A stretch of DNA of 64,000 nucleotides from Protoeuglena noctilucae (lineage: Eukaryota): NCBI GenBank assembly GCA_958009085.1, contig OY253671.1:1364001-1428000 (forward strand). The letters run 5' to 3'. The position numbers and the translations under genes were made by a program. Each line of letters opens with the position of its first letter. Position 1 is the first letter of the stretch. Under the pieces are notes generated by a model, which saw only the letters and a program-made list of their open reading frames with translations, did no database searches and was not told the origin of the DNA. Shown in pieces: positions 173 to 62,382 of the stretch.

Positions 173-1336
173 CTACTCGAAGAAGAACTTGACGACGATG
201 CACGATATGTTGTCGTTGCTTCCTCGCTGGTACGCCTGCTCCGCCAGGTCCTTGGCGGCGTCCTTCGCGGACTGCGCCTTCTCAATGATCCCCCGAGCAT
301 CCTCGTTCGTGATCACGTCCCAGATGCCGTCCGTCGCCTGCGGACACGCGCCAAACCTCGCCCCGTCTCAGCCGCGCGGCACTCGCGCCCTTGCCCCCAG
401 GCATCCCCAGCACCCTCTCCGCCCCTCACCAGCACGACAGCCACGTCCCCCGCCCCCAGCTTCTCGTGGCGGAGGTCCGGCCGCGCCACCACGAAGTCCT
501 TCAGCAGTCGGTCCCCGAAGGCCCGCGACACCGCCAGCACGCCCCCCACGCGCCACGTGCCCGCCCAGATCACCACGCCCCCCATCTTCTCAATCCTCTC
601 GCGCTCCTCCGGGATGTTGGGCTTGTGGTCGTTCGACAGCTGCACGCACTCGCCGTTGCGGAAGAGCACGGCGCGCGAGTCCCCCACGTGGCCCAGGTAC
701 AGGTCCTGCTCCCGGATCACCATCGCCGCCGCCGTGCAGCCGTCGTCGCGGTCGTTGGCGCCCTGCGGGATTGGCACCGGGGCGCGACCCTCCCGTGCCT
801 CGGATCGCACGGCATGGCGCAGCCCAGTTGCGGCACCAGCCTCTGCTGCGGTCCCACCTCGGACGCCAGGTACTGCTTGTCCGTCTCCAGGAACGACTCC
901 TCGATGGCCTTCTCGGGGTAAGCGTTGAAGTCCTTGTGTTGCATGATGTTGTGCAAGAGGCGGTCGCGGACAAAGTGCGCCGCGTCGGGGCCCCCGTGGC
1001 CGTCGAACACCCCAAAGCACCCGACCTGCCGACCTGACGCGTCCCTCACGAAGTCGGCGTACGTGAAGTCCTCCATTTGCGACCGCTTCCCCCGCATGAG
1101 CGCGTACCCGTACTCCACCTTGCCGTCCTCGCGCTTCTTTTCGCCGCTGCGACGTGGTGCACGGCGGACAGCTTCACGTACCAATACTGACGCCGTATCG
1201 GGGCCCGGGACGCCCCGGCGCGGCGCGGCCGGCCAGGGGCCCTCCGTCGCCGGGGCGTGGCGCATGCCCCGCTACCGCGCTCTCACCACTCGACCTTGCT
1301 CCCCCCCGTGTCCCCCATGGCTTTCGCCACGTACAT
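173..1336 (-). CDS. Protein phosphatase 2C (PPM family), 4 exons
   Basis: Spliced product has RGKRSQMED, FGVFDGHGG, DGCTA, GHVGDSRAVL, LSNDHKP, GVLAVSRAFGD, ATDGIWDV and GSNDNISCIVV. Start is ATG 1336 or 1318. Confidence 0.95.
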
Positions 1337-16001: not shown

Positions 16002-17486
16002 ATGCTGCGGGCTCTATCTGAGAGGGCGGCGTCCTGCTCGCACCGGTGCGAACGGACGCTTCCTGCGCCCCGGGTCCTGCAGCGCGCGGCTTGGTTGAGA
16101 GCGTACCGGGAATCAGGACGCGAGGCATCGACGCAGCCCGGCGAGGGGGTGGAGCAGGGCTGGTTGTGGCAGTCCCTGGCGGCCGGGCGGACGCGGGAGA
16201 AGCTTCAGCAGCACGGGATCAAGGCCAGGAAGGCCCTGGGACAGAACTTTCTCACGGACGACCAGGGTGCGGGCTCGCTTTGCTCGGGAGACAACCAGGC
16301 AGCCGGTGGCCACGTGCTACGCACGTCAGCGCCCTTGTGCCCGCAGTCCTGCAACGCATCGTGCGCGAGAGCGGCGTCCAGGCGGGCGATGCGGTGATTG
16401 AAGTCGGGCCTGGTACGGGGAACCTCACGCGGCACCTCCTGGCCGCCGGGGCACGCGTGACGGCCATCGAGAAGGACCGCCGGTTGTTCGAGGAGCTGAG
16501 TGCGGGCGGCGTGGACGCCTCGCAGCTTTCGCTGGTGTGCGACGACGTGCTGCGGGTGGACCTGCGCGCCCTGGCCCGACAGATGAGCGCGGCGTCGGGG
16601 GGCGAGAACGTGCGCGTGGTGGCCAACCTCCCTTACAACATCACTACCGACTTCCTGAAGAAATCCCTGCCCCTGGGAGACGCCGTCACGGACCTGTTTG
16701 TCATGGTGCAGGACGAGGTCGCCCAGAGGTGAGGCCTGCGTCATCGGCGGCCCAAACGGTGGTGGGGCCCAGGGCGCGCCTCAGCACCTATCTCCGCCCC
16801 CGCAGGCTCACGAACCTGGTGCCGGGGGGCGCCGAGTACCGAGCCATGAACATCCGTTGTTCGCTGCTGTCGACACCGGAGTACCTCTTCTGGATCCCCC
16901 GCACCGCCTTCTACCCCTGTGAGCCCGCTGCACACGCATGGAGACATTGCAGGCTGTGCTGGGGTGCGCCGTCATGCGTGGTGCATGACATGGTACCCAG
17001 ATATCCTCAGTCTAACTCGGACGGCCCCCTCGCCATGCCCGACAGCTCCCAACGTTGACTCTGCGCTGGTCCGTTTCCGGCTCAAGCGCTCCGACCAGCT
17101 CCCCGACCTGGGGCGCACCCCGGCCCAGTTTCTGGCGCTCGTGAACCTGGCCTTCTCCTCCCGCCGCAAGATGCTCAAGAACAACCTGCGCGCGGCGTAC
17201 CGGGCCGAGGTCGTGGACGGGGCCATTGCCCAGGTGGGGCGCAGACGCGGCACCGGCGGAGCAGCGCTGAAAGAGCCCACGTCGGTGCCTGTGACGGTGG
17301 CCTCAGCGGGACATGGAGTTGCGATCGCAGGCGGGGCTGGAGGCGGATGTTCGGCCACAGGAGTTGTCAGTGGAGGATTTTGTGCGGCTGAGCAGGGCGC
17401 TGGCGAGTGGGGCGGGTGCGGAGGGAGGGGTGGGCCAGGAGGATGCAGATGGGAGTGACGGCACAAATGGAGAGGAGGATGAGTGA
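16002..17486 (+). CDS. rsmA: SSU rRNA dimethyladenosine transferase (KsgA/RsmA, PFC1-like, organellar)
   Basis: ARKALGQNFL, VIEVGPGTGNLT, AIEKD, VVANLPYNITT, MVQDEVAQRL, PNVDSA, AFSSRRKMLKNNL, RPQELSVEDF. N-terminal extension resembles a transit peptide. Confidence 0.93.
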
Positions 17487-23600: not shown

Positions 23601-26600
23601 GGCCGGGCTCTTCTAGCAAAGCGCGACGCTCGTCCTCCAGATAGGCCTCTGGGAGCACGGAGGGTGTTGACGCATGTTTCTTCCCTTGTATACAAATGCC
23701 CGGCTCCACGGAAGCTGCTGCGGCGGGTGTGTGGCACCTTGGAGCTCCACGGCCGTCTGCGGGATGCGCTTCATGGGGCGCTGGAGGAAGCCGCCGGCCG
23801 TCAGGGCGCTGCACGCGAGCTGCGATGCACGGCGGAAGCCACGACAGTCGCTATGCGTGCCCAGCGGCCGCCCCGTGACTGCGCCGCCAGCCAGCCCTGT
23901 CAGCGCACCTTGTGAAGGACGGCAGGGTACGCGATGCTGTGTGCGCCGTTGGACGCGTGGATGAGGCCCGCCAGCACCACCTTCTGCTGCGGGTTTGGCG
24001 ACCGCGTCGCGCTCAGGGTCAGGGCTTGGAGGTCCGCCTCCGCCAGGTCGAACGGCGGGAACACGTACGTCGATCCCGCGGGCAGCCCAGGGCACTCCAG
24101 CACTAGCGTCGCATCCTCGGCAGACCGCACCACCACAATTACACGAACCGCTGGCACTGCTCGCCGGACGGCCGCCATCACCCACGCCATGCCCACGCAC
24201 TCGTCCGTGCTGCAAGTGGCCACGACCCAGGCGACGCAGCCCTCGCTGCTCATGGCCCGCAGCCTTTGTAGCAACAAAACCTCCCACGCCTCGTCCACAG
24301 ACACGAGCCGCTGGCGGCACACGTCTCGCGCCAGCTGGGCCACAGCAGGGCCATCGTCCTCCACCACCTGCGCCGCCACGCCCAGCACGGCCGCTAGCTT
24401 GGCCTCGTCCGCCTCTGCCCAGGGCAGCCGCTCCACGCCCTGCAGCTCGCACTGCGCCGCCACGCACGCCTTCACGAGGTCCCGCACCGGGTCCCCTGCC
24501 ACACGGCCTGCCTCCCTCACCTCCCCATGCAGCCCCATCACCACAGCCACGCGCTCGCCAGACACCCGCAGGTCCCTGGCGAGGCTCGAGGCGATAGAGA
24601 CCCGCAGGCGCTCACTGCCTCTGGCGCACCATCCCCAGTCCACATGTGGCAGCGAAGGGCCGGCGTTGTGCTGTGCGGGATCCGCCAGGTACATCAGGCC
24701 CAGTGCGTGCGCGCCCATCGCGCCAGCGAGCGCAGAGCCGTCCACGCACTTTCTGCCGCCTGTCGTCGCATCTCCCGGCGCACCCCCAGCGACGAGCTGG
24801 TCGGCCGGCACGGTGCCACGTGTGGTAGGCTTTTCCTCGACAGCCTCTGCCACGGGGCCTGCCTTGCGTCGTGCCTCGGGGCCAGGCGACGCTGTAGTTG
24901 ATTCCTCACTGGAGGCTCTCCTACGCTGCCGCGGGACCCGCGGAACTTGGACGCGCACCCATTCTGAAGAGACGTCCTCCCGCACGCGCCTGCGTTTCAC
25001 GACTCTGACGTGGCTTTCCACGGCAATTTCGTGGGAGAGCGGCCCCGAGCTCGAACCTGCCCCGTCCCCCGGGGAGTAGGAGCCGTGGGAGGAAGCCACG
25101 GACGTTGTGTCGACCTCGGGCTCCCTCGGGGCGACGGGTAGAGGGCCAGTGCCGGCACCTGTGTCCGGGAGCAGCGCCAGCAGCCCTTTCCGCTCATCTA
25201 CGGGGAGCAGCTGCAGGTCGGCGTTGCACAGCTCGTACATCAAGTCGCAGTAGCCAATATGATCCGCAGCGTCTTGGAGGTCAACAATCGTTTCCTGCAG
25301 GTGCGCAGGCGGACAGCAGGTCACTCTCCTCTTCCACGAGCGCATGGTCAGTGCGCTCGTGTGCTGATGCCACGACGGAGCTCGCCTCGATGTCAGCCCC
25401 GACCGCTGCACGCAACCGTGCATAGAACTTCTTCAGGAGCTGCGTGAGCTTCGTCGCAGTCACGGCCATCTCCTCCAAGTCGTTATCAGGCTCCCGCTCG
25501 TGTCCTTGCCCGTAAAAGTGCTGTTTCCACGTCGACACCCGCAAGATGGGTTCCCCGGACCGACGCTTCAGGTGGTACGACTGCGGACCACGGGGCTCGC
25601 TGGCGTCACATCGTCGCGTGCGTGCATGCAAGTCATCGCCGACCCGCAGGCAATGCCAGTCAGCCTCGCCTCCAACATGGCGTCGTGCACGTTCTCCCCA
25701 AACTGGCGAGTGCTGAACGATTGAAAGAGGTCCATGCTCTCCTGCCAAGCACCCTGCAGAATCACAAGGACACTGCCGGGTGTGGAGGGCAAGCGCCGGC
25801 TCGCCGACAGCACGGCATGGCAGCAGGGTGTGCCGGCGCCCCCTCACCGACTTGCAGAAGTCCCGGACTGCCTCCTCAAATCGCCAGAATTCCACGTCCC
25901 TCTCACGGAGCCCCAAGCAGCATACTAACTCCCCGATCTCCCCCTCGGAGGGCAGCAAGGGCTCGACTAAGATGTCCTGCACTCGACTCAGGTCCTCGCA
26001 CAGCGTCCAGAAAAATTGGCGACAGTCCTCGGCCCTCGGCCGATCCGCGGGGTTTGCCACCCAGCAGGTCCGAAGGAAGTCCCACAGCCTGCGCCCCTCC
26101 GTCGTCCACCGCAGCTGCCGATGTACCTTGGCCTTGCAGAACGCACTTCCCTCGCTTGCGTGGGAGGTCGCGATGTCGACTTCGCCTTGCATGACACGGT
26201 CTGCCAGCTCCTGCCGATTCCCAAGCTCCACGCCGGTCAGCACCTCCCACATGAGGAGCCCGAAGCAGACAATGTCCGTCTGCACTGAGAGCCACCTGTG
26301 GATTGCCTGCTCTGGCGCCCTGTATCCCGCCGTCCCAACATGGTAGTCGCGGCCTCTCAGCCACTGCGAGCTGACCCCAAAATCTGCCAAGTGAATGTCC
26401 GCCAGAGCGCCCGCCCCCCGCGCCCCCACAATCGGCACGGCATTGACAAGAACGTTGGCCGGCTTGATGTCGAGATGGGGAAACAGGACCTCGTGCATGC
26501 AGGCCAGGGACGTGGACACGGACAGCCCGATTGAGGCCGCCTGGGCAAGGTCCACGGCGGCCTTGCATCCAGGCGCAACGCGGCCGAGGTGCTCCCGCAA

Positions 26601-27352
26601 GTCGCCCTCGTACTGGCGCATGCGGAGGATCCACCAGGTCTCGTTCCCAGCACGGGGGTAGCATGCGAAGCCCACGTAGTGCAGCAGCCCGCGCTGCCTC
26701 AGCCGATCTGCCAGGAACACCTCCACGTCCAGATCGCGAAGCTGGAGGCCAGGCACGCCCTCGGGCGGAGGCTGCAGCAGCATGACCTTGGCCACCAGGG
26801 TCTCTTGCCCGTACCTCAGCTCCACCACCTGCATGCAAAGCACATGACGGCAGGATGAGGCAGCCAGGATATGCGTGCGCTGGGTGGCAGATGCCCAGAC
26901 TGCCTGCTCACCCTCGTCCCATCAGCTTCTTCTATGTTTTTCTTCATAGCCTGGGGAAGGGAAGATACTCCTGCAGGCCTTCGCTCCCCCAGCGCCCCGA
27001 ACGGCGCAACCTCTACCCCCAGGAAGCTCTTATCCGGCACTATCGCCGTGAAGACTTGACCTTGCGATGGCGATGTCCCCAGCACAGCAGCGTCCGCGAC
27101 GAATGTGCAGGCGCGGCCGGACAAGCAGGATTCGCACCCCGTAATCCATCTGCGAGTGATACGCAAGCAAATATTGACTGCACTACAGCGAGGGGCCTTA
27201 GATCGGGACACGCGCTGATGCAATGAGGGCGGCAAGCCACTGCATGCACTGTTGCGCGCGTTCCCGCCTGACCTCACACTGTCGCCGACCACTTGTACGC
27301 CGAACTGATTCAACACTTGGATCATAAGACCGTCGTCGTTTGGCAGGTGCAT
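17601..27352 (-). CDS. Giant NLR-like protein: Ser/Thr kinase - degenerate alpha/beta region - helical bundle - pseudokinase - MLKL/Cbl-like four-helix bundle and EF-like region - STAND NTPase - TPR array
   Basis: Kinase: VAK, HLDIKPAN, DFG, GTAGYRAPE. Pseudokinase: HGDVRPAT, RAPE, DMYGFG. Walker A GAPDTGKST, Walker B LLVLDKVE. About 42-aa TPRs such as LGASHPRVGNVLGELAKVY and FGPKHSRTCNAVMNKATCL. The separate ORFs join in frame through introns including 23908-23820, 23737-23649, 23217-23129, 23051-22948, 22369-22288, 21093-21002, 20908-20839 and 20732-20641. Confidence 0.8.
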
Positions 27353-27731: not shown

Positions 27732-28993
27732 TTAGTGCGAGAGGTGAGACTCGAGGGCGTTAAAGGCCTTGATCCCCTCCTCGTCGCTCTGCAGCCATGC
27801 TGGGCATCGCGTGACTCGCTCGTGCCCGGCCCAGCGCCCCTGACCGGCCCGCCCTCTCCCGCGCGCGCACTCACCGCATCTAGCCACTCCTCCACCTCGC
27901 GGACCTCCGGGATGTAGTGTTTAAGCATGTTTTCCACCCCCGCCTTGAGCGTGACGCTCGAGGAGGAGCAGCCCCTGCACGCCCCCACGAGCTTGAGGCT
28001 CACGACGCCCGTCTCCTCGTTAAACCTCTTAAAGACAATGTCGCCGCCGTCCTCCTGCACGGCGGGACTGCGGAGGCAGACGCGGGGGACGTCATGCACC
28101 CTGGGAGGCACCCACCCTCGCCACCAGAGCCATGCCCCGCACGCCGCACCGGATCCTCGTGTCCAGCAGCTCCTTGATCATCGCCACAACCTCCGAGTCG
28201 TCCTCTGAGATGTGCGTGTCCTGGCTCTGCAGCTCCGCTCCCTCTAGGACCTGCCAGGGGCCAAGAGAGGCTGGGTGTCGAGCAACGCAGCCTGCGGAGC
28301 CTGTCGACCCAGCTCCAACAACGCCTCGCATTGTCACATCACTCACCAGCGGCTCCCCCGATGAGAAATGGTCCATGATGGCTGCGAAGACCTCCGGCTT
28401 GACGATGCCCCACTCGGCTGCCTCGTCCTTGGACACGGTGATGAAGTCCGACCCGAAGAACACATGGCGCACGCCGTCGATGAGGAACAGCTTCTGCGGA
28501 AAGGGTTGAACCGAGGGAGTCGACCGGGAACACCCTCCTGCCACCTTGCCTGGCCAGCGCATCTTGCTAGCCCCAGCGCAATGCGAACCTTGGCCAGCGG
28601 GGACGCCATCGCAGACCGCGCGTCCGGGAAGTCGTACGAGCCCTTCTCCACCACGGGGCGCCCCGGCAAGAACATCAGCGAGTGCTCGTTTGGTGTGTCC
28701 TGGGTCTGAATGAACATCCCCCGCGCTTGCCACAAGCTTCCCTGGAGCGGGCGCCCATCACAGCCCAGCGCCAGCCGAGATCCCGCCGGGTTCGCCCATG
28801 CGCGTCCGAGGGCGCGAAGCCCTGCCAGGTGCGCCCGCGCCCCTTGCGCCGCGAACAGCCAGCGTGCGGACGGCGCCCGGCGCTGCGTCACCGCGCGAGA
28901 GCACGCGGCCGGACCTCTCGTGACGGTATCGAGGCACAGCTGCTCGAGCGCAGTCGAAAGCTGCGCGGCAGCTCGTCGCAAGGCCGCAGTCAT
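27732..28993 (-). CDS. NFU1: Mitochondrial NifU-like Fe-S cluster carrier (NFU1/NFU4 type)
   Basis: [72 protein letters not shown], preceded by a long presequence. Confidence 0.95.
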
Positions 28994-29482
28994 GGTTCTC
29001 TCAGCGTACACCGCGCACCGCCCTCTCACAACACCACGACAACAGCGCACGGATATCCTTTGACGCCGGCACGACTACCGGTAGCCCGGGGATCAAGAGA
29101 TTGGTGAGAAAAGAAGGCGAGGAAATCCTTCCCTTCCTTGCCGCGCAGAATCGAGGTAAAACCGTCGCCAACTGCGCAAGGGCGGGTCCACACAGTCGCA
29201 GATGGGATGGGTTGTGACGGCATTCATGCATGGCGCGAGTTGGGCAACGTCGTCAGCCCCGACGCCGCCAGTGGTGTCAAATGCATCGTCCATTGTCCTG
29301 ATCAGCTTGCCTGCCGAGCAGTTTGTGGCAGCGACCATGTGCACTGAGCTACATTCTGCGCCGGCCTGTGACCCGTAAGCAACGCGAGGAGGCCCAGGCG
29401 TGGCGGCGGCCCACGCCTAGTGGGCCCCGACGCGCGGGCATCCACCCAGTAGCGCTGCGTGTGTCACGGATGAACTGTGTCA

Positions 29483-35763: not shown

Positions 35764-37114
35764 TCAGTCGCCCTTGGGACGCCCCAACCGCCCTCCATCG
35801 CCGCCGTCCCTCTTAGCAGCGGGCGGTGTGTCGTATGCCTTGGCGTACGTGTAGAGCAAAAAGCCGCCCGTTGCCACTGCGGCCATGCGACACTGGTCAG
35901 GGCTGTGCAACCTTACTCCTCTGGGCGCCTGCTCGCATCACAACAGCGCCACTGGCATGCGGCGGCCTCGCCTGTGTACCCCAGGACCTGTGCTGGGGTG
36001 ACGGACTCTTGGTAGGCGAGGACGCCAAGCAACACGATGGCGACGTTGCGCACCGTGGCCCACACCTTGACCGTGAGAGACCCAGCAGCACGGACGGCCA
36101 GGAAGGCAGTGGCCTGCACGGCTGCCGAGGACAGCACCTGCGGCAACGGACGACAGTGTGAGCGCGGCAGAGCGGGCACGACGGCCGAACCGGGGCGCAG
36201 GTGGCAATTGTGCTTAGTATCAAGTCACCAGCAGGGAGAAGAGGGCCGGGTGCCTCAGGACCGGCCACATGGGGCCCCTGCTGCCTGGGGTGCCCCCCGC
36301 GAGGTCCGCCTCGTGTGCAGCCTGGAGACGCAGGATCTCTGGCACCTCGTACATACCCGCAAAGATCCCTGCGAGGAGAGGGTCGTGGGCCCATGCCACA
36401 CGCGTTGCGGCGGGAGCAACAGCACTATGCACGCCCACCCTCTGCGCTGCGCTGCGCACCGAGCATGAGTGCCTGGAGGGGTGCCACGAACGCCAGCGCC
36501 TCGACGGTGTCGAGCCCGCGTGCCCCGTGCATGTTGGCCTGCATAAGCACGACCCGCAGGCTCTCGGCAAGGACGGACGCCATCATCGCAGCGATGCCGA
36601 GGAGCGAGAAGCTGGGCTTGTCCGCCTCGAGCAGCGCGCAGGCGCCGGTGCCCGCGGCGATGAGGGCAACGCCGGACGCGGAAGCCAGGGACCAGGGCTC
36701 GAGGCCGCACGCCACGAGCATCGCCATCGTGACGGCGGGCATGGCGGCTTTGATGATCTGGATGAAGGCCATGGAGAGGAGACCGTAGCTGAGGTTGCCC
36801 AGGTACAGCGCAGCTGCCCCGAGGGCCGCCATGGGCACGATGGCCGTCAGGGAGCGGTGCAGGGACGGGACGATGCGTCGGGCTGGGGGGCGCGCCGACC
36901 ACAGCAAGGCGCCGGCGAGGCCAGACGCGGCTGAGCCTGCCACGCACAGCGTGCAGGGGAAGTTGAAGCGGAGCTCCACGGCTGCAGTCCGCTGCAGCAC
37001 GACCATGAGCGACGAACAGCCCATCCACAGGGCCACGCTGGCTATGGCCGCTGCGAGAAGGGCCGGGGCGGGGCTGTGTGCTGCGGAGGATGTGAAGCTT
37101 GGAAGACATGGCAT
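35764..37114 (-). CDS. TPT / nucleotide-sugar transporter family membrane protein
   Basis: FNFPCTL, LYLGNLSYGLLSMAFIQIIKAAMP, LAESLRVVLMQ, GSLTVKV, and after splicing QVLGYTVATGGFLLYTYAK. Many hydrophobic helices. Confidence 0.85.
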
Positions 37115-37619
37115 CAATCTGCACGATCCGCACCTCCGGCGCGGCCCATCCCGCTGAACAACGACATTGGTCGTTCACGCTTCGCATCGAGCGTCGGCGA
37201 GCACGTCGAGGACGTCTCCGCATGTCCTGCTGCTGCTGCTGCTGTAGTCAGGACGTTTGTAGAGGCCGGGGGCACCACTTTCGGCCGCAATTACCACTTG
37301 GAGTGTCACTCCTGGTGAGCCAAACGTTTTCCACAGTTTGGTGCTCGCGTCCACGCCAACCAGGGCTAAACTTGGCCAATCCGTTTCACAATGCTACTTA
37401 TCGCGGATTTCTTTACTGCAATGATGACTTGGCAACTGGCGAAGCTTCAGCCCCACGAGCTCGAATGCAGGAAACGAGGCGACACACTTGCGAGGAGCGA
37501 CATTTGCACATGCCCGGCTGCAAAGCACGGCTGTGTTGCATGGCTCATCAGCTGGCTACCAAAGAAACGGAGGGGCTGAACGGGGCGGGTGTGGATGGCA
37601 AGGTGGCGCAAAGCAGCCG

Positions 37620-40600
37620 TCATGCGTTGCGTGCAAACTTCTCAGGTTTGGCCCAGATGCGCTTGGCAATGTCGTCCTTCGGGTACGGAAAGAGCTTGTC
37701 GACGATGCCGATCAGATTTGCGCGGCGCTGGACCTCCTGCGGGCCGGCACGGGAGGCCGCTGTCCGCAGTGCCCAGCAGCACTGGCAAGGAAGCCACCAG
37801 TCACCCACAAAGTCCTTCTCGCCTGGAGTTTGATCTGCTCCTCGTCCGTCAATCGCGGCACGAGCGCCCCCGGCGTGTTGTCCAGCGATGACGCGTAGTT
37901 GCCCCGGTGGGTGCGGAAGGTCGTCCCCCCCCGAGTAGTGAAGCGCTGGTAGTTGATATCGTACTTCTCGTGGAGCGCGCGGAGGATGGGCTCCGTGTAG
38001 TGCAAATTCTCAAGCGTCTCCCTCTGCGCGGACACCGGGCGTCGCATCACGCCCGTGTGCACCTCGCAATGCCCACCTCGCAATGCCCACCTAGGCACAG
38101 GGCTTGCGCAACATCCCTCGCCTTTGCCAGATCCTTGTTAAGCTTGTGCTCATGAAGACGGTGCGCGCTGAGCGAGATGCGGGCCTTGAACCGTGCCAGC
38201 TCACCGTTGCTCCGCGCCTGTGTCACCAGCACCTCCCGCAAATCCCGGGCCAGCTGCCCGTCCCACTCTATCTTCACGTTCCCGCTCGAGGGGATGAACT
38301 TGATGCGGGCGTTGCGGGGATTCCTGCAGCGATGGCGACGCCCCTGGCATGTCCCGCCCGGCCCCACCCCAGCAGTGCAGCCCGGCGCAACCCCACCCCA
38401 CGCACCGGAGCCTCCTCCCCTGCAGCAGCAGCTCCAGGGCGTCGTCCATCGTCCACTGGCTGCCCTCAGACACGGGCACCCACCGCGTAACCCCGCCCTC
38501 GCCCTGGACCTCCTCGTGCCGCGTGACGGGGAACTGGAAGAACACGCGCGCCTCGACGGGGCGTGGGGACCCGCGGAGCTCGAACAGCATCGACTGGAAC
38601 TGCCTCGCCAGCTGCTCGGCCCGGGTGGGGTCCTCGACGAGGGCCAGGGCGTGGCCGGTGAAGCGGCCGGTGACGGGGTCGCAGACCAGCGACACGCCCT
38701 TGATGGATGCGAACTGGGACAGGGAGTCCTTGAGGTTCTCCTCTGCGGACCGACAGGCACGAGGCGTGGCGGACAGGAGCCAATGCGGGTGGGGGTGCGT
38801 GCAGGAAGGCGACTGAGCGCACGCGCACCGGGTGTCTGGGTGGAGATGTTGCTGCCGAAGGCGGGCGACAGGCGGGAGAGCAGCACCGCGTGGAGGCAGG
38901 GCTGCGGCGCCACCTCCTCCACCTCCTCGGCCCTCAGCTGGTCCGGGTACTTGTCCCGCAGCAACGCCTCCACCTTTTGGATGTGCTTGATGCGGACCTC
39001 CTTGCGCATCTCCCGGAATACCAATTGCATCTGCGAGCCGGGAATGCGCGGGGGGCGCTGGTCCTGGCCGGCCCGGCATACCAAGGCCGCAGCGCTGCCC
39101 CGCTCAGGGCCCGCCCCGCCCTCGCCTGCCGCCACTGCAAGGCGAGGTCGTACTCGACGGTGTTGGTCTGGCAGAAATGTGCAGACTCGTGCTCCACCGG
39201 CACCACCTCGAGCTGCTCGCCGAACGCCCCCGACAGCGTCGCCCCGTCCGACATCTTCAGCACCCTCAGGTGGCCGGAGAACTTGCCCTTGGTGCTCGTG
39301 GCCTGCAGAAACGGACGCGAACAGGGTTGGGGGCGCCAGGGACGCCAGATTGGCAGGCATGCATTAACAGCGGCCACGATAGCTGCTGGATCCACACCTC
39401 GTACGTCCACGTGGGCCGATGGGCGAGGACGGGTCGCAGGATCGGATCCTTCGGGCCTTTGACGTAGGCGATGTTCAGGACCCGAATGGCCAGCCCCGCT
39501 GACGTCTCGTCGGCAAATTTCGCCCACGCCCACCCCAAGCAGCGGCGCACGTGCTGCACCGCCTCGCCCGGCCCCTGGGCTTGCTGCCAGGGGGCCGCTG
39601 CGTTCTCCGAGCCCAGCACCGCCACGCGCGCCTCTTGCGGACGCAGCCATTCGGGCAGCTGCTCCAACAGCACCCACAGGGCGTCGTCGTCAAAGTGCTC
39701 GCCCAGGTTGTCCAAACAGACAAACGCGCGCGTGGAGGGGTCGACGCCCTCGCCCCACAGGCCCAGCTTCTCGGGCCCCAGCGCCCCGAACCTCCTCTCC
39801 AGCAGACCCAACGCGGCCTCGACCCTGTCCTTGGCGTCTCGGAGCTCTGGCGGGGCATGGCTGGGCACCCAGTCGGGCGCAGACGGGGCGACCGGCCCCA
39901 CTCTTGGCGGCGGGGGCGGGGGAGGGGGTCCCGGCGCGGGCGGGACCCCGCCGTTTGCCACCCGGGGCGCCGCGCCAGGCCTCCGTCGAGGGTCCCGCGG
40001 CGCAGGGCCCACCCGGGCCCCCGCGGGCTCCTCCCACATGGCGATGGGCCCAGCGAGGCCGAGGGGAGACGCGGACGCGGACCCGCCCGGCGCTGGCGGC
40101 GGCTGCACTCGTAAGGGCGCCACAAGCGCGGCTGCAGGCCCCAACCCAGCCCCTGCGCTTCGCCCCGCCGCGGTTGTGGGCGCTCCCTCCCCCTCTACCG
40201 CTCCGTCCCTCTCTTCCCTCGCATGCCCCAACGCGTTGCTCTTCGCCGCCACGTGCAGCTGGTGGCTCTTGATGTCCCCCGTGAAGTCGTTGGCGTTGTT
40301 TTTGAAGTGCTTGGCGACCCGCTCCTCCGTCCACAGCGGGTACTTGTCCTTGAAGACAGGGTCTGCCGCGATGGCCTTGGAGCTGAGGCCGTGCTTGCGC
40401 ACCATGACGTGAAGCTCGTCCAGCAGATCCTCAGACACGCGCGGTGCCACCGACTGCGCCCAAGGCCAGAGACGATGGTGGGCCCGGGCAGAACGGGCAT
40501 GCCGCAGACGGGGCTGCCGCGCACAAACAGCCCCGTCAGCTCTGCGCCAGTGGGTGCGCCAGTCGCGCTCACCTTCTCCATCCCCCGCTGTTTGACGACG

Positions 40601-42810
40601 CCACCGCCGGCCTTGGCAGCCAGGGCCGCCCCCATCCCTCCATGCTCCCGGCCTTTGGCCCCCACAGGGACCGTCGACTTCCTGACGCGATTCCCCATAA
40701 GCTGCCCCGGCTTCGACCCCATCCGCTTCAGCTGTGGGGCTGGCCGTCTCTTCATCACGTCCAAGTTGGCAAGTGCCCCGGCCCGGAAGATGCCGTTGGG
40801 CCGCCCCTGCGCACAGCGGGCGCCATGATCGGTGTCTATTGCCTGCATGCGATCTGGGGTCCCCGCAAACACCGCAGCAGCACTGCCCGCCATCGCAGCG
40901 CCAGACTTGCGCCCACCTCGGCTGTCGCTGCCGGCCTTCGCTCCGCGCCCCGCGATGCCCCCATCCCCACTTTGACGACCCCCGCCCCCGCCGATCCGTC
41001 TTCGCTGCTCTCTGACTCGCTGCTGTCCGAGTCTGACGAGCTCTCCTCGCTGCTCCCCTCGCCTCCCCCAGCCGAGGTGGACCCCCGCGAAGTGCTCTTG
41101 TCAGAGACGTCCTTGGAGTCCTCTCGCACACGCTTCACCTCCGCACGCCTGCCGCCTGCCGCCTGCACCTGCTGTCGAGGCCCCGCCTTGGCCCCCGCCT
41201 CCCTGGACCCACCCCGGCTCTCCGCGTCCCCGACATCCTCGGCGTCCACCCTGCCGGCCTCGCTGCCCCGCAGTGTGCCCCCGTCGCCCACCTCCATCAA
41301 CGCTCGCCTCTCCACGCCCCGACCCGCCTCCGTCTGGGGGCCAGCAGGGCCAGCTCCGGGCCCTGATGCCGGGCCAGCCACCCCCCCGCGGCCCTCGCTG
41401 GCCCCGCGACTCTTCTTGCGGGCCTGTGCCTCCCCGAGAGAAGAGCCCCCTGGCTGCTCCCTCCCTGCCGACCCGGGCCCCGTCTCCGCCGCCGCACTCG
41501 CCCGCCCCCCCTCCGTCGCCCCCTCCTCGGTTCCCTGTGACCCGGCCTCCTGCCCCGATGCCGCCCGCCGCCGCTCCCCCCGGGCCCTGCCCCCCTGCCT
41601 GCCGCGCTTGCGGGGCGTCCTCCGGTGCACCAAGTCGGAGAAGTCCTCCCCGCTGCTCTCCCCGCTCAGCAGACCCGCCTCCTCCTCCGCCCTCTTGCGC
41701 ACGTGCTCCGGCCGCCGATCCTCCACCACCAGCTCCGTGCCCATCGCGGGGTCGCCCTCCCTCGGCTCGTACACGGCGTCCTGGACGATGCGAGCGAGAA
41801 GGTCTGCGAGGCAGCCATAGGGGAGGGAGGGAGAGGACCCGCACAGGGGGCGCGGCTCGCACGCACGCGGCACCCTCCCCACGCTCGCCTGGATCAGACA
41901 CCTCCTCCTCGGTCCACTTCTTCCGCCCCTGCCTGTGAAAGACAACCGTGGGGCGTGCCGCGCGCAGGTTCACGTCCATGTCCATGTGCACACTCGTGGG
42001 GTCGAACGACTCCACCTCCTCCACCCGCACCACGTGCAGCTTGCCCTGGTGCCCCGGCATGAGGGGATCGCAGTAGACATAGAAGTCGCCGGTCTCCTCG
42101 ATGCGACACACCCATCTGGGTGGGCGAGAGGGGAGGCGGCTCTGAAAAACCCGTCCTGGGGTCCTGATAGCTGCCGTCATGTGGTCAGCCCACATGCCAG
42201 AGCTGCAGGCCTGCCTATCGGGCCCATGGGCGCCTATGGCACGTGTCGCCCAGCCTCACCCTGCCCACCACGTGCAGTTCCACAGCAGGTCCACACCCAC
42301 GCCGAGCTTCAGCCTGTTGAGGTCCAGGCGCTGATGTGGGGGTATAGGCCTGCGCAGGGCCAGGACTGCGACCTTGGGAACCGAGGCCGTCAGGCCCCAC
42401 GTCACTCGTGGCTGCGCGCAGACGCGCGTTCACCTGAGGCTCTCCAACGGAACAGCCTGTTCGTCCTTATCGGTCGCCACGGTCGTGTACCAGCCGCTGG
42501 CACCGTCCCTGGTCCACCGGCCATCGCGGACGTCTGGTTGAACCTCGTGGAGCTGGAGGCGCATGACAAGATCGCACGAGTAATATTCGCGCTCTTCTTC
42601 CGAGTATCGCCGGGGGTTCTTGAGCACCTTTGCGGGCCACCAGGAGCTTCCACAGCCTGCGGACACGGGCGGGCACACGTTCCGCGCCTCCGCGTCGAGG
42701 GATGCGCAAAGCGCCAGGAGACGCTCACCAGCTTCACGACATCCCTCCATCTCGACGTATGCGCCTTTCTTGGCCCACTTGGCCCACTCGGGCGGTGACG
42801 CTGGCCCCAT
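37620..42810 (-). CDS. Tandem Agenet + Myb/SANT-like + ASI1-like RRM module + AIPP1-like RRM module, about 13 exons
   Basis: Agenet: GAYVEMEG..GSSWWPAKV..LRPIPP and VDLLWNCTWWAGWV..FYVY. Myb-like: MVRKHG..IAADPVF. RRM1 followed by KFSGHLRV and HFCQTNTVEYDLALQW. RRM2: AVLLSRLSP..EENLKDSLSQF..FELRGSPRPVEA. All junctions traced in frame. Confidence 0.8.
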
Positions 42811-43055
42811 CGCGCCCGAGCGGCGAGCACCGCGGGCCTTCGTCAATCCGATGGCTCAGCCGTTTGCTTCGCCTCATTCCTCTCGCGGAACTAGAGACGT
42901 TCCAGCCCAGTCCAGAGAGTTTAAACTCAGTTTCTTTTTCACTGGCAAGTTGGCGCTAGAACGTGTTTGTTTGAAGCCGTTGTCAACCCCCGAGGCGCTG
43001 CTCCACCCGACACCGCGCTGAGCCCTCCTTCTGCGCGAATGGCGAAAGGCGGGGC

Positions 43056-43817
43056 ATGACGGCGGTGCTTTGGGGGGGGCATGTGGGCTGTCGCAGCTCC
43101 AAGCCGTGCCCCTCGCCAATCGCGCTCCGACGACTTGTGACTGGCGATGTGCTGACACGCCCCGGAATCCATGTGAAACGGCGCGGCAGGCTATGCGCCG
43201 TGTCAAGGCAAGGCGGTGGCGCTGTGTGAAGTCACACGACCTCGGGACCCGTTTTCGATGCGATCTCGCGCCGTGCTGCCCGTCACAGGCGTCCCGGCAT
43301 CGACTACGGGCTCCTCGTCGGTGATGTCGTCGTCCTCCTCGCGACGCTGGTCGCATCGGACCGCATCCCCGCGTCGTCCGAGGTGCCGCTTGGCAGCATC
43401 CTCGTCGGGTGCTGGACTGCAGTATCGATGGCGAAGGGGGACTACCGACGGGGCGCCGAGGTGGACGGCCAAGGCAGCATGGTCGACTTTACGCTCGGGT
43501 TCGACGCGACGAAAGCCCTGGAGGACGTGCTGGGCACGTGGTGTCTGTTCGCCCCGATGTCCATGCTGGTCTGGGCGTACAGCAGCTGGGGCTCTGACAT
43601 GCAGTTCAACGTCGTGCCGACGGAGCGAGCGCACCCTCCAGAGGCCGAGGTGTGACCTAGCTGCTGCCGCCTGCTGGGGCTGCGTGCTGCCTCACCCTGG
43701 CTAATGACCGCACCAACGTCCCCTGTCCTCGTGATGCAGGTCGTCGTTGCCGTCTTCATCACCGCGCTGTGTTGGCGCCTTTCGTGGTGCTGGCTGAATC
43801 CCCCACAGCAGGAGTAG
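43056..43817 (+). CDS. DUF3054-like small membrane protein, probably plastid-targeted
   Basis: LLVGDVVVLL..CWTAVSMAKGDY..TWCL..VVVAVFITALCWR resembles DUF3054. Exon 1 resembles a transit peptide and joins through a GC-AG intron at 43208-43288. Confidence 0.55.
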
Positions 43818-55579: not shown

Positions 55580-55861
55580 GTCGGCGCCTTTGCAAAGCTC
55601 TCGCATCGTTTACGCTGTTGGCGCAAGCAAGGATTGAAGAAACGTAGGCGAACGAGACCCGGAGCGCGAAGGATAGGCGCGTGCACGCCGAGTTCGTTGG
55701 CTGACTTCACATCTCGGCCGAAATATCGCACGAACCGAGCAGTCTATGGCGCATCTGGCTCTTCAAGCCTGACTATAGCTTGTCACGAGTGCCATCCACG
55801 CCACGGTGGCCGGGTTCGGGCCGATGCGCGACCACCTGCCCCCCCCCCCGCAGGCGACACC

Positions 55862-56922
55862 ATGAGAGAGGCGAAAGAAGAGCCCCCGCGGTCGGCCGGC
55901 TCCCTCGCCAAGCGGCTGGCGTGCCAGGTAAATTGATTCGACGATGGGCCAGCGGGCGGGGGCTTTCAAGGCTTAGTGCACGAGCTGTCCCGCGGCAACC
56001 GCAGGCCCTAGTGGTTACGGCGTTTGTCGCGGCCACGTATGCCGACCTGGGGCTGGCGTCCTTCGTCGGCAGCGTCCCATGTCGGTTCCACGACAAGTTC
56101 GCCATCCCGCCGTGGGCCGGCATCTTCGCCCGCTCCCTCGACCCCACGTTCGACCGTTCGGGCCCGCTCCGAGTGCCGTACAAGACGGCGGCGTTCGACC
56201 TGCTCCTCCTCCTCGCTCTCGCCGTCCAGCACAACCTGATGGCGCGGCCTGCGGTCAAGCGGATGTACTCCTCCATCCTCCCTGCCGGCTCGGAGCGGGC
56301 GGCCTTCACGCTGGTGTCCTCGGCCCTGGTTAACGCCATCGCCATGAACTGGCGGCCCATTCCGACCGTGGTCTGGGAGCTACCTGACGCGTACAAATGG
56401 GCCGGGTGGGCCGTCTACTTCGGGGGACTGGGCATGTGCCTGTACAGCCAAATGCTCCTCGACCCGGCCCAGGTGCTCGGGATGTACGAGGCGTTCGGGC
56501 GGGGCCGCGGCGCCCGCCTCCAGCTCCAGAGCCTGTACAGCTGGGTCCGGCACCCGATGTACCTCGGGCTCTTCGGCATGCTGCTGGGGGCGCCGGTCAT
56601 GACGATGGGCCGGCTGCTGCTCTCCATGTTCTGGATCTCCTGGGTCGTCTTCTCCGTGGTGACCTTCGAGGAGCCCGACATGGTGCGGGAGCACGGCGAC
56701 AGGTACCGCTCGTACCAGGACGCCGTCCCGCGCTTCTGCCCTTTCTGGCCCGCGGGGACCGGCATGATGCAGGCCGGCTTCGTCCCGCACAAGGAGGAGG
56801 CCCCGCACAAGGAGGAGGCCCCGCACAAGGAGGAGGCCACGGGCCAGCGCGGGGAGGCAGCTGCCACGCCGGCCGGTCCAGAGGGCATCCGCGTGGGCGG
56901 CGCAGAGAAGAAGGGCAAGTAG
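55862..56922 (+). CDS. Methanethiol S-methyltransferase MddA / nurim-like membrane methyltransferase (ICMT superfamily)
   Basis: LAVQHNLMARPAVKR, ERAAFTLVSS, WRPIPTVVW, LYSWVRHPMYLG, PVMTMGRLL, EEPDMVREHGDRYRSYQDAVP. One 5' intron at 55928-56003. Confidence 0.8.
56785..56838 (+). repeat. Three perfect 18-bp tandem copies encoding PHKEEA x3
   Basis: ccgcacaaggaggaggcc repeated three times. Confidence 0.9.
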
Positions 56923-57479: not shown

Positions 57480-60400
57480 ATGGCCCTGGCCGCGGCCCTG
57501 CAGCAGCATGTGGGCGCTGCGGAGCTCCGACCCGTCCCGGAACTGCCCAACACGATCGGCCATTTGCACGGTCAGGGAGTCCAAGTGCCCCCCCCGGGCC
57601 TCCCGCCCCTCCCGCCGTCCTTGCCGGGGCTGTCCGCCGTGCCACCTCGGCTGGACGTCCCGCCCCGCCCCCCTGCATCCCCTCTGACCGCGGCTATGGC
57701 GCCATGGGAGGCGGGAACACCCTCGGTGACGCGGCTAGGGGAACCGCACCCTGCCGGGCTCCCCTCGGCCGGTGGCCTGCCCCAAGACCTGGCGGGGGCG
57801 GCCCTCCCTGACCTGGCATCGCTGGGCCTGCAGCCGCTCCCGGCGTTGCCGCCGCCCTTGTCGGGGGGACTCCCTCTGCCCCCCCTTCCGCCCCTGGCGT
57901 CCCTGCCCCCGCCAACCACGGACGCTGAGAGGCGGGGCACGGGGCGCGATGCCACCACCAGCGGGCGGCGGCACTTCGAGGGGAGCCACATGCTGTCCCT
58001 CCATGTGCACCGCATCCATCGCCTGCATCTGGACCGCAAGCTCACCAAGCCCTGCGTGCGCGTGCACCTTATCTCCGAGAAGACGGGGGCGCACATCCCC
58101 AGGTGCGTGTGCTCCCCAGGCGTGGGGCGTTCGTCTAAACAGGCGCCCATTCGCTTCGTCACCTGCTCTTATCGCTGTCACTCCCGCAGGAGGAGCGTGG
58201 GGGGCAGCCTGGCCGTGGACGGGGAGGCCCAGGCGGCCATGATGGAGGCGCCAGGGCGGCCCGACCTGGTGGGGGCACCCGTGACGGGCGAGAGGAGGTG
58301 GCAGCCGCAGCTCATGACGTACGTGCCGGCCGCACAGACGAAGCCGCGGGTGGTGTACCACGACGAGGGCAGCGGGTCCCTGCGCGTCGACTACGACGAG
58401 GAGTTGGCGCTGTTCCACGACCTCCAGGACGCATTGGGTGCGTGGCGCCTCGCATGGGGCCTTTGCCTGGACATGCTTTGGCTCGCATGACGGCACTGCA
58501 GCCCATGCTCCGCTCTCACGCTGGTCATGCAGATGAGGAGGGCGTGCTGCTCTTCCAGCTCCTGCAGCCCCCCAACTCGTTCCGCCACCGCAACGTCGAC
58601 GGGCGACTCTTCGATCGGGAGGGCGGCACCTTCCGCCACGTGGCATGGGGCTTCCTGCGTCTCAAAGGGCCCGAGGTGAGGGGCGGAATGGCTGGCGGCC
58701 CCTGGGAGGTTGACTGCCGCCGGTGAGGTGATGGGCCCCACCTGTCGTCGCCCGGCGCAGGAGCAGTTCCTGGAGGGGGAGCAGAGCGTGCAGCTTTATG
58801 CCTATCGAAGGAGCCAGCGTGGCCGGGGGCACGAGTACGCCGTGAGGGAGGCGTTCGAGACGTGGGCGCGGAGCATGCACGCGGGGGCGCGGGCCCTCAC
58901 GCGACTCAAGCTTCTCGCATCCCTCAGCGTCGCCGTGCGAGCCGAGCCGCGTGACCGGCCCATGCCTGTCGTGAACGACGCCGCCAAGGTTCGGCGCGAG
59001 GGGCATCGCAGGCCGCCTCGGCCACCGCCTCCCCCGACCCCCTGACACTGGCTTGGCCACCTCCCGCCCTCGCAGGGCGTGCGCCCCTGCGTCCCCGCTG
59101 GAGCGGGGTGGGGCTGGGACGTGGGCCGTGACGCGCGGGGCATGGCGGCCCTGGGGATGGCGACGGAGGTCGTGCGGCTGCGTCAGCTGGCTGGGCTCCC
59201 CTGGCTGGAGGGCGCCGCGGCCGGGCAGCTGCGATCGCCCATCGCCGGCATCGGGCACCCCACGGGAGAGGCCGCGGCGCGCGTGGTGCGCTTCGAGGGC
59301 GGGAGCGGCCTCCCCGGGGCGCGCCGGGAGCCGGGGGAGCCTTGCGAGCTCCCCAACCGCCCTCTGTACGCGCTGCGGGGCCACCCCCGGGGTGCGCTGG
59401 CGGTGTCCTTTAGCCACCGCGGCGACCTGCTGGCGGTGGTCGGCGGCGACATCCCCGAGGCCACCCTGACGGTCTTCCGCGTGGACTCGGGGGTCCCCGT
59501 GGCGACCTTCGCGGGGCACAAGGGCATGGTGTACGACCTCGACTGGTCGCCCGAGGGGGACCGCCTGGCCACGGCGTCCGCGGACCTGACCGCCAAGGTG
59601 TGGGCCATGCCAGACCTGGCTGAGCGGGGGCAGGGCGCGGGGCATGGGGGCCCGAGGCGCCTGGAGGTGGAGCGGGCGTGCGTGGTCATGCAGCACGCGT
59701 CGTACGTGTACGCGTCGTGCTTCTCGACGCTCCCCGGCGACGTCGGCGTGGTGGCCACGGGGGACTTCACGGGGACGCTGCGGCTGTGGGACGGGCGCGA
59801 GGGCGTGCAGGCGAGGGGCGGCGCGGGGGCTGGTCGTCTGGGTGCGTTCACTCATCGCACCGGCTCACATCCTTCGTCCCGGCACACCCCCGCAGCTGAC
59901 CAAGCTGCAGCTGGCCTCGTACGTGTCGTCCCTGGCCTTCCACCCGCTGGGTCGGCGCATCTACGCCGGAGACGGCAAGGGCATGGTGTACGAGATCGCA
60001 AACGAGGTAGTCCCGCGCTACGGGGGCCAGGGCGGGTCCCGGGAGGGCCCCGACCCGGCCCTGGCAGCCCTGATGCTGCCCCCGGTCTCGGCGGGGGCCA
60101 CCGTCGAGGGCTACGAGCGTCGCCTGGCGGTGGTGCGTGAGTCGGACGCCCTCCTGGGCGAGCGCGTCACGAGCGTGAGGGTGTCGCCGCAGGGGCGGCG
60201 CGTGCTGGTGCTCACGCGCGGGAGCCGCATGGTCACCTTCACCGCCTCCCAGCTGGCGGTTGCGCGGCAGTTCCATGGTATCGTGTGCCAGGCCCTCCCC
60301 CTGCGCCCGTGCTTCTCCCCTGACGGGCGCTGGATCCTCTCGGGCTCCGAGGACGGCTCCGTGGTCGTGTGGGACGTGGACGCCGGCCACGCCTACCAGT

Positions 60401-61241
60401 GCCCGGCCCTCAAGGCGAGCGAGACGCAGCGCTGGGGCGGGAGAGGTGGCAGCAGACGCTTGCCTCACCTTCCATTAGTGGTCTGAGCCCCCGCAGATGG
60501 GGAAGGACCCCGTGCTGCAGTTCGCCTGGTCCCCCATCGACCACATCCTCGCCTCGTGCACCCTGTCTCCCGCGAGACCCACGGTACTCCGCATCCACGA
60601 TGTCAAGGCGAGTTCTCCCGACTCGTCGCTGCACCGCCGCATCCCCGCTTCTCTCACGCTCCCTGCCGCCCTTTCGCAGGTCGACCCGGTGCTCCTCCGG
60701 AAGATGGGCGGACCTGACGACGGGGAGGTGCGCGCCCTGCGGCAGCTGCGCAGGCACGGGGTCTCCGAGGACGCCGGGGGCGACGAGGGAGGCCAGGCGG
60801 CGGCAGAGGCCGACGCGCTGAAGGACGCCCTCACTCCGGCCGACGTGTCGCGCATGCTCGAGCGCATGCGTATCCAGGTGAGTCTGCCGGGACCCCGCTG
60901 CCGGCAGGCGCAGGCGCGGGCTCCCCCTGGCGCAGCTGCAGACGGGACCCGCCCGCGTGCCGCGGGTGCAGGTGCGCGCCAAGCGGTGGTACGACGGTGA
61001 GTTTCAGTCCCTGGTGGTGAAGCTCAGCGTCGACACGCGCCTGGGCCCGGGTGGATTCGGAGGATTCGCCGACTACTCCAAGGATTCGGGGATGGCGCAG
61101 ATGCAGGTGCTGCCCCAGGGGCCCGTCACCGTCCGGCGACTCTCGTCCGAGGGTGCGCGGTCCTCGGGGCTCCCCGGCACGCCAGCCGGTGTAGGCCGCT
61201 CCAATCACGGCAGCGCGCTCGCCGCTGCGCTGATGCGGTGA
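57480..61241 (+). CDS. AHI1: Jouberin/AHI1-like ciliary transition-zone protein (C2 + WD40)
   Basis: LSLHVHRIHRLHLDRKLTKPCVRVHLISEKTG and VLLFQLL..RHVAWGFLRL match the AHI1 C2 domain. WD40 repeats include GHKGMVYDLDWS..LATASADLTAKVW and FSPDGRWILSGSEDGSVVVWD. Confidence 0.8.
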
Positions 61242-61423
61242 CCGTGCCGCATGTGCTGCACGTGATGCCCTTTGCCAGTGGCCGTTAGCTTGCCTGGCGC
61301 ACGTATGAGCTCTCGAAAGCAACGTCGTGGCTCACAGTCTTCAGTGGAAGCGGCGCGCTTGCGAATCGTCGCGGTCCCGGGTTTCCCAACTGTGAAACGC
61401 GTCCTGGGGCAAGTTTTGCGTCT

Positions 61424-62382
61424 ATGCGTGCCACAGTTGGCTTGAATGCATCCCGTGGTAGCCTCTCGCGATGGCAAAGCCGCACTGCATCCATACGGCG
61501 GGCGGCGTTGGAGGGTGGCAGCAGCGGGGGTTGGGTTTGGCCCGAGGAGACCCGCCCGCTGGCGCTGAAGGAATGGAATGTGACCGTTGAGGCCCTCGTG
61601 GACGGGTGGACGACTCTCTTGCTTCGGAAAGGCGGAATTCGAGAGCCGCACTTCGTCCCGAGGTGCGGAGGCGGTTGTGCACGCGGGCCTGTCTCCATTC
61701 CACTGCCACTCTCTGTATGCCCCCACCTGGGCCGGCGTCCGACGCGGCAGGACAGCACCGTCGGGGCAGCATCCTCAGAGCAAGCTTGTCCCCCGCACCA
61801 TTGCAGGGCAAAGTCGTTCCTGCTGTTCCCCACGAGCTTCCACACGGACGCGAGCGTCCTGCAGGCTGACGCAGCCGGCAGGTACCAGGACCTGCTGTCG
61901 TGGGAGCTGGGCAGCGAGGTGCCGTTTACGGTGCTCGCGGAGGTGACAGGTCTGTGGACGACCATGGACCCGGAGGGGATCCTGGATGCGACGTCGTCCT
62001 TCCACATCTGGGGCCCCAAGTTTGTCGAGACCCGTCTCAAGTGGCGCAAGACGCAGCCCGTCACGGTTATGGAGCTTCGGGCCTACCGGCTGCGGGAGCC
62101 CATGGTGCTGCCCAGGCGAGAGGAGTACGCAGGATGCTTCAGGCAAGCCGGGCTGCTAGGCACGAGCGCTGCCCAACGCTCGAGCGGGCGCCGAGCTCAC
62201 ACGGCCCTGCCCGCAGCTGGGTGGAGCCCGTGTCGCAGAGGCTAGACGACGGGCTGATGCCCCTCCGCGCTACGTCGACGCCCGCAATCGCCAACGGGGA
62301 ATTCGCCGGCCGGCAGCGCCGTCTCCGGGACGTGCTGGAGGCGGTCCCCTTCACCGAGCTGCTCTACGACGGGCTGCAGTAG
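61424..62382 (+). CDS. DUF1802 family protein, probably plastid-targeted
   Basis: ALKEWNVTVEAL, LLLRKGGIRE, FLLFPTSFH, ETRLKWR, and after splicing YAGCFSWV. Confidence 0.85.

Follow-up and report, generated by a model that had tools for sequence, protein, structure and literature searches.

An expressed 13-exon gene of Protoeuglena noctilucae encodes a sequence-orphan RRM protein with an aromatic-rich N-terminus and a candidate Myb/SANT-like module

The minus-strand locus at 37620-42810 of a 64,000-nucleotide stretch of Protoeuglena noctilucae DNA (assembly GCA_958009085.1, contig OY253671.1; this whole stretch is referred to as the window) raises the question of whether a single algal protein could join the reading of chromatin to the handling of RNA. 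An initial annotation had proposed that the BAH domain and the separate protein EDM2 are replaced, in a protein of ASI1 type, by tandem Agenet readers of histone H3 lysine 9 methylation (H3K9me) together with a Myb-like segment. We found that the locus is one expressed gene of nuclear type, with 13 exons and a product of 1344 residues. In all searches run the protein appears as an orphan at the sequence level, with an RRM that looks generic and, as judged by its domains, it is not an ASI1 orthologue.

Exons were predicted on the minus strand from GT/GC..AG sites and open frames, and the predicted introns were checked against contigs of four marine metatranscriptome runs (X1-X4) aligned to 36500-43600. 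These runs represent three samples of one single study, with X1 and X3 sharing a sample. All 12 of the 12 predicted introns were confirmed as joints in the RNA contigs. Six joints in the 3' part of the gene (37735/37822, 38023/38122, 38322/38405, 38742/38829, 39030/39126 and 39301/39397) were observed in four of four runs, and three further joints (41803/41889, 42115/42260 and 42348/42433) in three runs (X1-X3). The exon 1/2 joint (42655/42728) and the exon 6/7 joint (40453/40573) were each observed in two runs, and the exon 5/6 joint (40805/40916) in one (X1), where its short side measures 41 letters. The exon 2/3, 5/6 and 6/7 joints are further supported by contigs of X4, which carried three short loose ends identical to neighbouring exon ends, one of them to the start of exon 3 and another, of 16 letters, to the end of exon 5. 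Eight of the introns have GT-AG borders and four have GC-AG borders.

Splicing yields an open frame of 1344 codons, from the ATG at 42810 to the stop ending at 37620, and the G+C content of its third codon positions (GC3) is 0.67-0.96 across all 13 exons, within a window of 64-75% G+C throughout. Two transcript-derived proteins, both from sources other than these four runs, are equal to parts of this product: P0001 (Logan) to residues 720-1344, the C-terminal 625 residues, and P0015 (JGI/IMG) to residues 561-1344, a total of 784 residues that takes in the Myb-like stretch as well as the junction of exons 6 and 7. The aromatic 5' exons, the Myb-like stretch and the RRM thus lie in one spliced frame, as the initial annotation had stated, with each intron seen as a joint in RNA and the continuity of exon 5 inferred.

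An RRM was recognised by Pfam in P0001 (RRM_1, PF00076): the score is 30.9 bits, with 20.7 as the cut-off, the E-value is 2.5e-7, and the match covers positions 4-64 of the 70 in the profile. The nearest solved sequences were PUF60, hnRNP D and Musashi (E no better than 7e-4), and we regard the domain as a generic RRM. A second RRM-like stretch at residues 822-906 had no Pfam match and a low-confidence model, and is possibly a degenerate RRM. Beyond the RRM lies a C-terminal region of about 220 residues without a family.

The aromatic strings described in the initial annotation were all found in minus-strand exons and in frame: SWWPA at residues 32-36 (42631-42645), WYT within residues 82-86 (42481-42495), WNCTWW at residues 125-130 (42265-42282) and FYVY at residues 143-146 (42073-42084). 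Residues 1-207 contain 5.3% W, 10.1% F+Y+W and 20.8% I+L+V+M, a composition that reads as that of a folded domain. Both segments are similar to Agenet domains in overall pattern, which extends to an L-R-P-x-P-P string following the first of them, and we treat this likeness as a lead rather than a test. A protein language-model look-up placed the nearest named clusters among bacterial SH3 domains (0.90-0.91, with low feature sharing), a weak lead that hints at a small beta-barrel. The spacing W125-x4-W130 ... Y144/Y146 ... D148 is close to that of the Agenet-2 cage of AGDP1 (Tyr122, Trp127, Phe144, Glu149; PMC6208443, represented here, like the other papers cited by accession, by an excerpt), and these are at most candidate cage residues. 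We lean slightly towards N-terminal barrels of the Royal-family type, hold their membership in the Agenet family itself to be doubtful, and consider the reading of a methyl mark, plausible from the aromatic spacing only, distinctly unlikely.

Exon 5, between the aromatic module and the Myb-like stretch, encodes a segment with 0.7% F+Y+W, 0% W and 34.5% G+P+S, with basic clusters at residues 237-245 and 268-274 and a 19-residue acidic serine tract at residues 458-476. This segment looks disordered from its composition.

Within exon 7, the only usable part of an AlphaFold model (predicted local distance difference test, pLDDT, 74-84) covers model residues 8-52, corresponding to residues 589-633 of the protein, with helices at 8-21, 25-37 and 43-52. 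The best structural match was the GARP domain of LUX (5lxu; Z 6.7, root-mean-square deviation (rmsd) 2.2, 54 of 57 residues; VIA-align), followed by NCoR2 SANT2 (Z 6.2), CoREST SANT (5.8), ARR1 (5.8), PHR2 (5.6), TRF1 (5.5), MTA1 SANT (5.3) and c-Myb R1 (5.0). The top near-whole-domain matches were 5lxu, 2ltp (Z 6.2), 6vyp, 8xas, 1w0t and 1mbe, and other helix-turn-helix proteins were interspersed in the list. GARP/SANT/TRF-type domains (5lxu, 2ltp, 6vyp, 1w0t, 1mbe) resemble the predicted bundle of about 50 residues, with rmsd 2.2-2.6 over 51-68 residues, but unlike them residues 589-633 have no Pfam Myb/SANT match. Myb repeats typically carry three spaced tryptophans, whereas the first two of these are not evident here. 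The model gives modest support to a three-helix bundle of Myb/SANT type, and the Myb/SANT-like segment of the initial annotation therefore stands as a predicted helical bundle with modest structural matches, not as a domain recognised by Pfam.

Sequence searches beyond these domains returned the locus itself or nothing related. A homologue search with residues 60-625 of P0001 found the locus itself only, and exon 7 searched against longer proteins returned only the transcript protein of the locus. None of nine candidates was a relative when exon 4 was compared with longer proteins. In JGI metagenome contigs, confirmed relatives numbered 0 of 409 pattern matches for exon 4 and 0 of 49 for P0015, and in viral contigs 0 of 31 for exon 4 and 0 of 42 for exon 2. 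Searches of the PDB with phmmer gave no chains at E <= 10 with exon 2 or with exon 4, and a PDB search bearing on the Myb-like stretch gave no Myb/SANT chain. The string SWWP is present at residues 32-35, but a PWWP reading (PF00855) of the N-terminus was not adopted, as no PWWP profile match was obtained.

The explanation that we tentatively prefer, with rather less than even confidence, is a lineage-restricted multidomain nuclear scaffold that would couple chromatin or protein marks to RNA handling. The N-terminal 165-207 residues or so would form an aromatic-rich folded module, most likely two small SH3-like or Royal-family barrels that are Agenet-like by pattern only. A disordered linker of about 370 residues, with basic clusters resembling nuclear localization signals and the acidic serine tract, would lead to the Myb/SANT-like three-helix module, a Pro-rich spacer, the possible degenerate RRM, the Pfam-verified RRM (its RNP1 motif without the usual aromatics) and the C-terminal region. 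The barrels and the SANT-like module may hold histone tails or other, possibly methylated, proteins, the RRM region may hold RNA or a ribonucleoprotein (RNP) partner, and the long disordered linkers would connect these binding modules of the scaffold.

Several results count against such a scaffold, beginning with the N-terminus, where the tandem Agenet/Tudor repeats of the initial annotation gained no profile match, homologue or usable model. No Pfam match to Agenet (PF05641), Tudor, PWWP or SH3 was obtained at E <= 10 in the exon pieces, in the exon 1-4 read-through (exons 1-4 in the genomic frame that they share, two stops within introns being given as X) or in P0015, with the HMMER filters discarding most matches above E of about 0.1. 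Putative barrel 1 matched no Pfam family at E <= 10, either as exon 1, intron 1 and exon 2 in frame or as exon 2 alone. Putative barrel 2 also matched none as an exon 3 piece, an exon 4 piece or within the exon 1-4 read-through, which is a weak negative because intron 3 cuts this barrel midway in every query. A phmmer search with exon 1, intron 1 and exon 2 against 1.84 billion representative proteins gave six matches and no real relative: one was the unspliced open reading frame (ORF) of the locus itself, and the other five, to RCC1, ephrin-receptor-like and other repeat or multidomain proteins, were judged spurious by Pfam and BLASTP. The single-sequence AlphaFold model of barrel 1 (pLDDT 45.6) was useless, and the best fold-search score with it (Z 4.0) is meaningless. 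The two N-terminal halves were also not detectably alike, with a Smith-Waterman score of 31 against 27.0 +/- 4.7 and 185 of 1000 shuffles reaching that score.

Similar points apply to the remaining modules. The Z values of 5.0-6.7 for the Myb/SANT-like bundle lie below the caution line of the tool (Z < 8, possibly a common arrangement), Foldseek returned nothing at E <= 0.001 with the exon 7 model (best 1.2), and in Pfam at E <= 10 exon 7 and P0015 gave only RRM_1 and a weak DUF7095 match, with no Myb/SANT family. The RNP1 consensus has aromatic residues, and in the alignment with PUF60 the string K-G-F-A-F-V-E-Y faces T-G-H-A-L-A-L-V, so that the normally aromatic positions are His and Leu, while RNP2 retains its Phe; RNA binding is therefore not to be assumed. 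None of the RNA contigs listed spans both the exon 4/5 and the exon 5/6 joint, and the open frame of exon 5 is by itself weak evidence, since two of the six frames are open there.

The competitor that fares best, although we consider it unlikely, is a long RRM protein of RNA metabolism with additional low-complexity and helical segments, whose N-terminus has no reader function and adopts either a lineage-specific orphan fold or some barrel, PWWP-like or other. The failure of profiles, homologues and structures to support any reader family is consistent with this, and a genome of 69% G+C makes tryptophan-rich strings easier to obtain. Against it stands the resemblance of the spacing at residues 125-148 to a known Agenet cage (PMC6208443, excerpt). 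The folded, aromatic-rich composition of residues 1-207 and the SWWP followed by A-K-V, a Royal-family-type string, also count against it.

Less probable is a scaffold for RNP assembly or splicing, in which Tudor-type barrels would bind methyl-arginine or other protein ligands and the RRM would be a protein-binding pseudo-RRM. The Tudor modules of SMN, SPF30 and TDRD3 bind ligands of this kind. The lack of RNP1 aromatics, the origin of the nearest solved RRMs in the splicing factor PUF60 and the long R/G/S-rich linker would all fit such a scaffold, but a Myb/SANT-like module is met more typically in proteins associated with chromatin or DNA, and no Tudor/SMN profile match was found.

We give equally little credence to a more ambitious form of the preferred chromatin-to-RNA scaffold, a self-contained algal adaptor with a tandem Agenet methyl-lysine reader, a SANT/Myb-like module contacting histones or DNA, and RRMs in one polypeptide. 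Such a protein would do alone what plant ASI1-AIPP1-EDM2, or the subunit Chp1 of RITS (the complex for RNA-induced transcriptional silencing), does with partners, and its family would be too divergent for profile and sequence searches. S. pombe Chp1, the chromodomain H3K9me reader of RITS, carries an RRM. FMRP combines tandem Agenet with KH RNA-binding domains (cited in the excerpt of PMC6208443), and both proteins may serve as precedents, for the preferred scaffold too, of a single chain that unites a Royal-family reader with an RNA-binding domain, although their domain families and order differ and no homology is shown. Like AGDP1/ADCP1, the plant readers of H3K9me2 with tandem Agenet domains (PMC6208443, PMC6318295), the present protein has two consecutive aromatic-rich segments, the second with cage-like W-x4-W...Y...D spacing; unlike them, it shows no Agenet profile match or homology, has one segment pair rather than three, and is fused to Myb-like and RRM parts. 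A literature search for Agenet with RRM in algae gave no mention of Agenet in its ten highest-ranked papers.

A division of the locus into two transcription units, with exons 1-4 and part of exon 5 in one and the Myb-RRM part in the other, is very improbable. The unbridged exon 5 among the contigs listed would allow it, as would an X1 contig that leaves the window sequence at 40630 for 144 letters without a match in the window, and P0015 begins at Met561. RNA does, however, show splicing at the exon 5/6 joint, both in the X1 contig and in the 16-letter loose end of X4. We consider a single transcript highly probable because the splice sites at both ends of exon 5 are used in RNA, the frame from exon 4 carries on through exon 5 into exon 6 with no in-frame stop, and the GC3 of exon 5 in this frame is 0.85, like that of the other exons. 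At about 41257-41602, inside exon 5, X1 had no contig cover (estimated from the depth table), probably where a very G+C-rich low-complexity stretch breaks assemblies, and we draw nothing from this gap. RNA contigs were also observed to diverge at 39110, 40630 and 42032 into 144-255 letters matching nothing in the 64-kb window; we take these for assembly chimeras at G-rich repeats, although an alternative 5' end may instead be involved.

The lack of a BAH motif noted in the initial annotation was confirmed: PF01426 matched none of the exon pieces, nor the exon 1-4 read-through or P0015, and a BAH reading of the N-terminus was rejected on the same result. Of 100 further long ORFs in the window, none matched BAH or PHD at E <= 1e-5. 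The defining features of ASI1 are a BAH domain, an RRM and membership in a complex that also contains AIPP1 and EDM2. What the ASI1 BAH domain binds is an arginine of SUVH6 in its unmethylated state (excerpts of PMC9910501 and PMC9292364), not a mark on a histone (PMC9910501, excerpt), so a methyl-lysine reader would not take over that function, and the proposed replacement of EDM2 and BAH is not supported. Like ASI1 (IBM2) of Arabidopsis and rice, the protein has an RRM, and a chromatin-to-RNA role is conceivable; unlike ASI1, it lacks BAH, is about 1344 residues long and has a Myb/SANT-like module and an orphan N-terminus, with no sequence relation detected beyond the generic RRM. The RRM had been called ASI1-like, but the presence of an RRM is the sole common feature, and the searches returned no named relative. 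The absence of BAH, the RRM and the cage-like aromatics speak for an ASI1-type protein with Agenet H3K9me readers in place of BAH and EDM2, but with an RRM not linked to ASI1, the SUVH6 target of the BAH domain and no Agenet profile match, its chance is so slight that we set it aside.

The coordinates of the exons, the modules and the other Pfam-matched genes are collected in the table below.

Table. Positions in the window of the exons and modules of the 1344-residue protein and of long ORFs with Pfam matches elsewhere
Feature	Position	Strand	Remarks
Exon 1	42729..42810	-	Residues 1-27; start codon 42810-42808; joint to exon 2 in RNA, two of four runs
Exon 2	42434..42656	-	Residues 28-101; contains the strings SWWPA and WYT and the greater part of putative barrel 1; RNA joints
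Exon 3	42260..42349	-	Residues 102-131; WNCTWW; first half of putative barrel 2; joints on both sides in three of four runs
Exon 4	41889..42115	-	Residues 132-207; FYVY; second half of putative barrel 2; GC-AG intron at its end
Exon 5	40917..41803	-	Residues 208-503; 887 bases; low-complexity G/S/A/E/R-rich linker; flanking joints in RNA
Exon 6	40573..40806	-	Residues 504-581; basic; exon 6/7 junction also in P0015
Exon 7	39398..40453	-	Residues 582-933; contains the Myb/SANT-like module, a spacer rich in Pro/Ala/Gly and the possible degenerate RRM
Exon 8	39126..39302	-	Residues 934-992; joints in four of four runs
Exon 9	38829..39030	-	Residues 993-1059; RRM begins; RNA joints
Exon 10	38406..38742	-	Residues 1060-1171; main RRM part; RNA joints
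Exon 11	38122..38323	-	Residues 1172-1239; RNA joints
Exon 12	37823..38023	-	Residues 1240-1306; RNA joints
Exon 13, coding part	37620..37736	-	Residues 1307-1344; stop codon 37622-37620
Putative barrel 1	42346..42771	-	Residues 14-103; introns 1 and 2 inside; pattern only
Putative barrel 2	42013..42312	-	Residues 115-166; intron 3 inside; W125, W130, Y144/Y146, D148; pattern only
Myb/SANT-like helical module (predicted)	40298..40432	-	Residues 589-633; AlphaFold and structural matches
Possible RRM-like region with insertion	39479..39733	-	Residues 822-906; RNP2-like and RNP1-like strings, by eye only
Pfam RRM_1 match	38582..38853	-	Residues 1052-1113; spans intron 38743-38828
PP2C	316-1173	-	Long-ORF Pfam match
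MYCBPAP	4024-4785	-	Long-ORF Pfam match
mTERF	13749-14651	-	Long-ORF Pfam match
rRNA adenine dimethylase	16022-16729	+	Long-ORF Pfam match
TPR protein, 1094 residues	17604-20885	-	Long-ORF Pfam match
Protein kinase	25284-26921	-	Long-ORF Pfam match
Nfu_N	28095-29074	-	Long-ORF Pfam match
PEMT	55705-56919	+	Long-ORF Pfam match
WD40	59046-60483	+	Long-ORF Pfam match
DUF1802	61289-62242	+	Long-ORF Pfam match

Several further features of the gene were observed. Its introns are all short (72-144 bases), and the four of the 12 with GC-AG borders lie at 41804-41888, 39031-39125, 38024-38121 and 37737-37822. This share resembles those published for Emiliania huxleyi, with 56-65% GC donors (excerpt of PMC4028052), and for pelagophytes, with 14-17% (excerpt of bioRxiv 10.1101/2024.10.30.620910). 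Taken alone, this likeness would allow a host outside the plant lineage, and it was counted against the ASI1-type reading. Introns 1-3 measure 72, 84 and 144 bases, each a multiple of three, which places exons 1-4 in one genomic frame, and intron 1 is itself open in that frame. As a consequence, ORF-style public gene calls give "proteins" of 126-138 residues (P0002, P0008-P0010) that include intron-coded residues. Another JGI/IMG transcript protein, P0013, differs from P0001 by eight missing residues of a proline run (residues ~755-763; window ~39900-39925), which looks like a length polymorphism in a low-complexity spacer. Upstream, an ATG at 42877 on the minus strand opens a 47-codon ORF (42734-42877) that overlaps the start codon of the main frame, is read in a different frame and is possibly an upstream ORF, if the 5' untranslated region extends so far.

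The gene has close neighbours on both sides. At 36428-37735 an X1 RNA contig of 4131 bases crosses the 3' end of the gene and enters the adjoining minus-strand gene, which codes for a transporter of the TPT family (Pfam TPT, E 3e-9) and has an intron at 37051-37133. This contig reflects either very tight spacing or read-through and is no proof of a single transcript. A divergent neighbour at 43177-43800 on the plus strand (joint 43205/43287) encodes a small protein without an assigned family and had the highest contig depth in 36500-43600, up to 105 in X1. The rest of the window holds ordinary eukaryotic gene content.

The solid result is the smaller one, a well-supported, expressed, sequence-orphan multidomain RRM protein, whose gene is fragmented by ORF-style gene calls, some of the fragments including intron sequence. 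Beyond plants, fungi and animals, there are hardly any experimental ways into the coupling of chromatin state to RNA processing. If the N-terminus does read methyl marks, this locus would offer a compact, single-gene handle on that coupling in marine algae.

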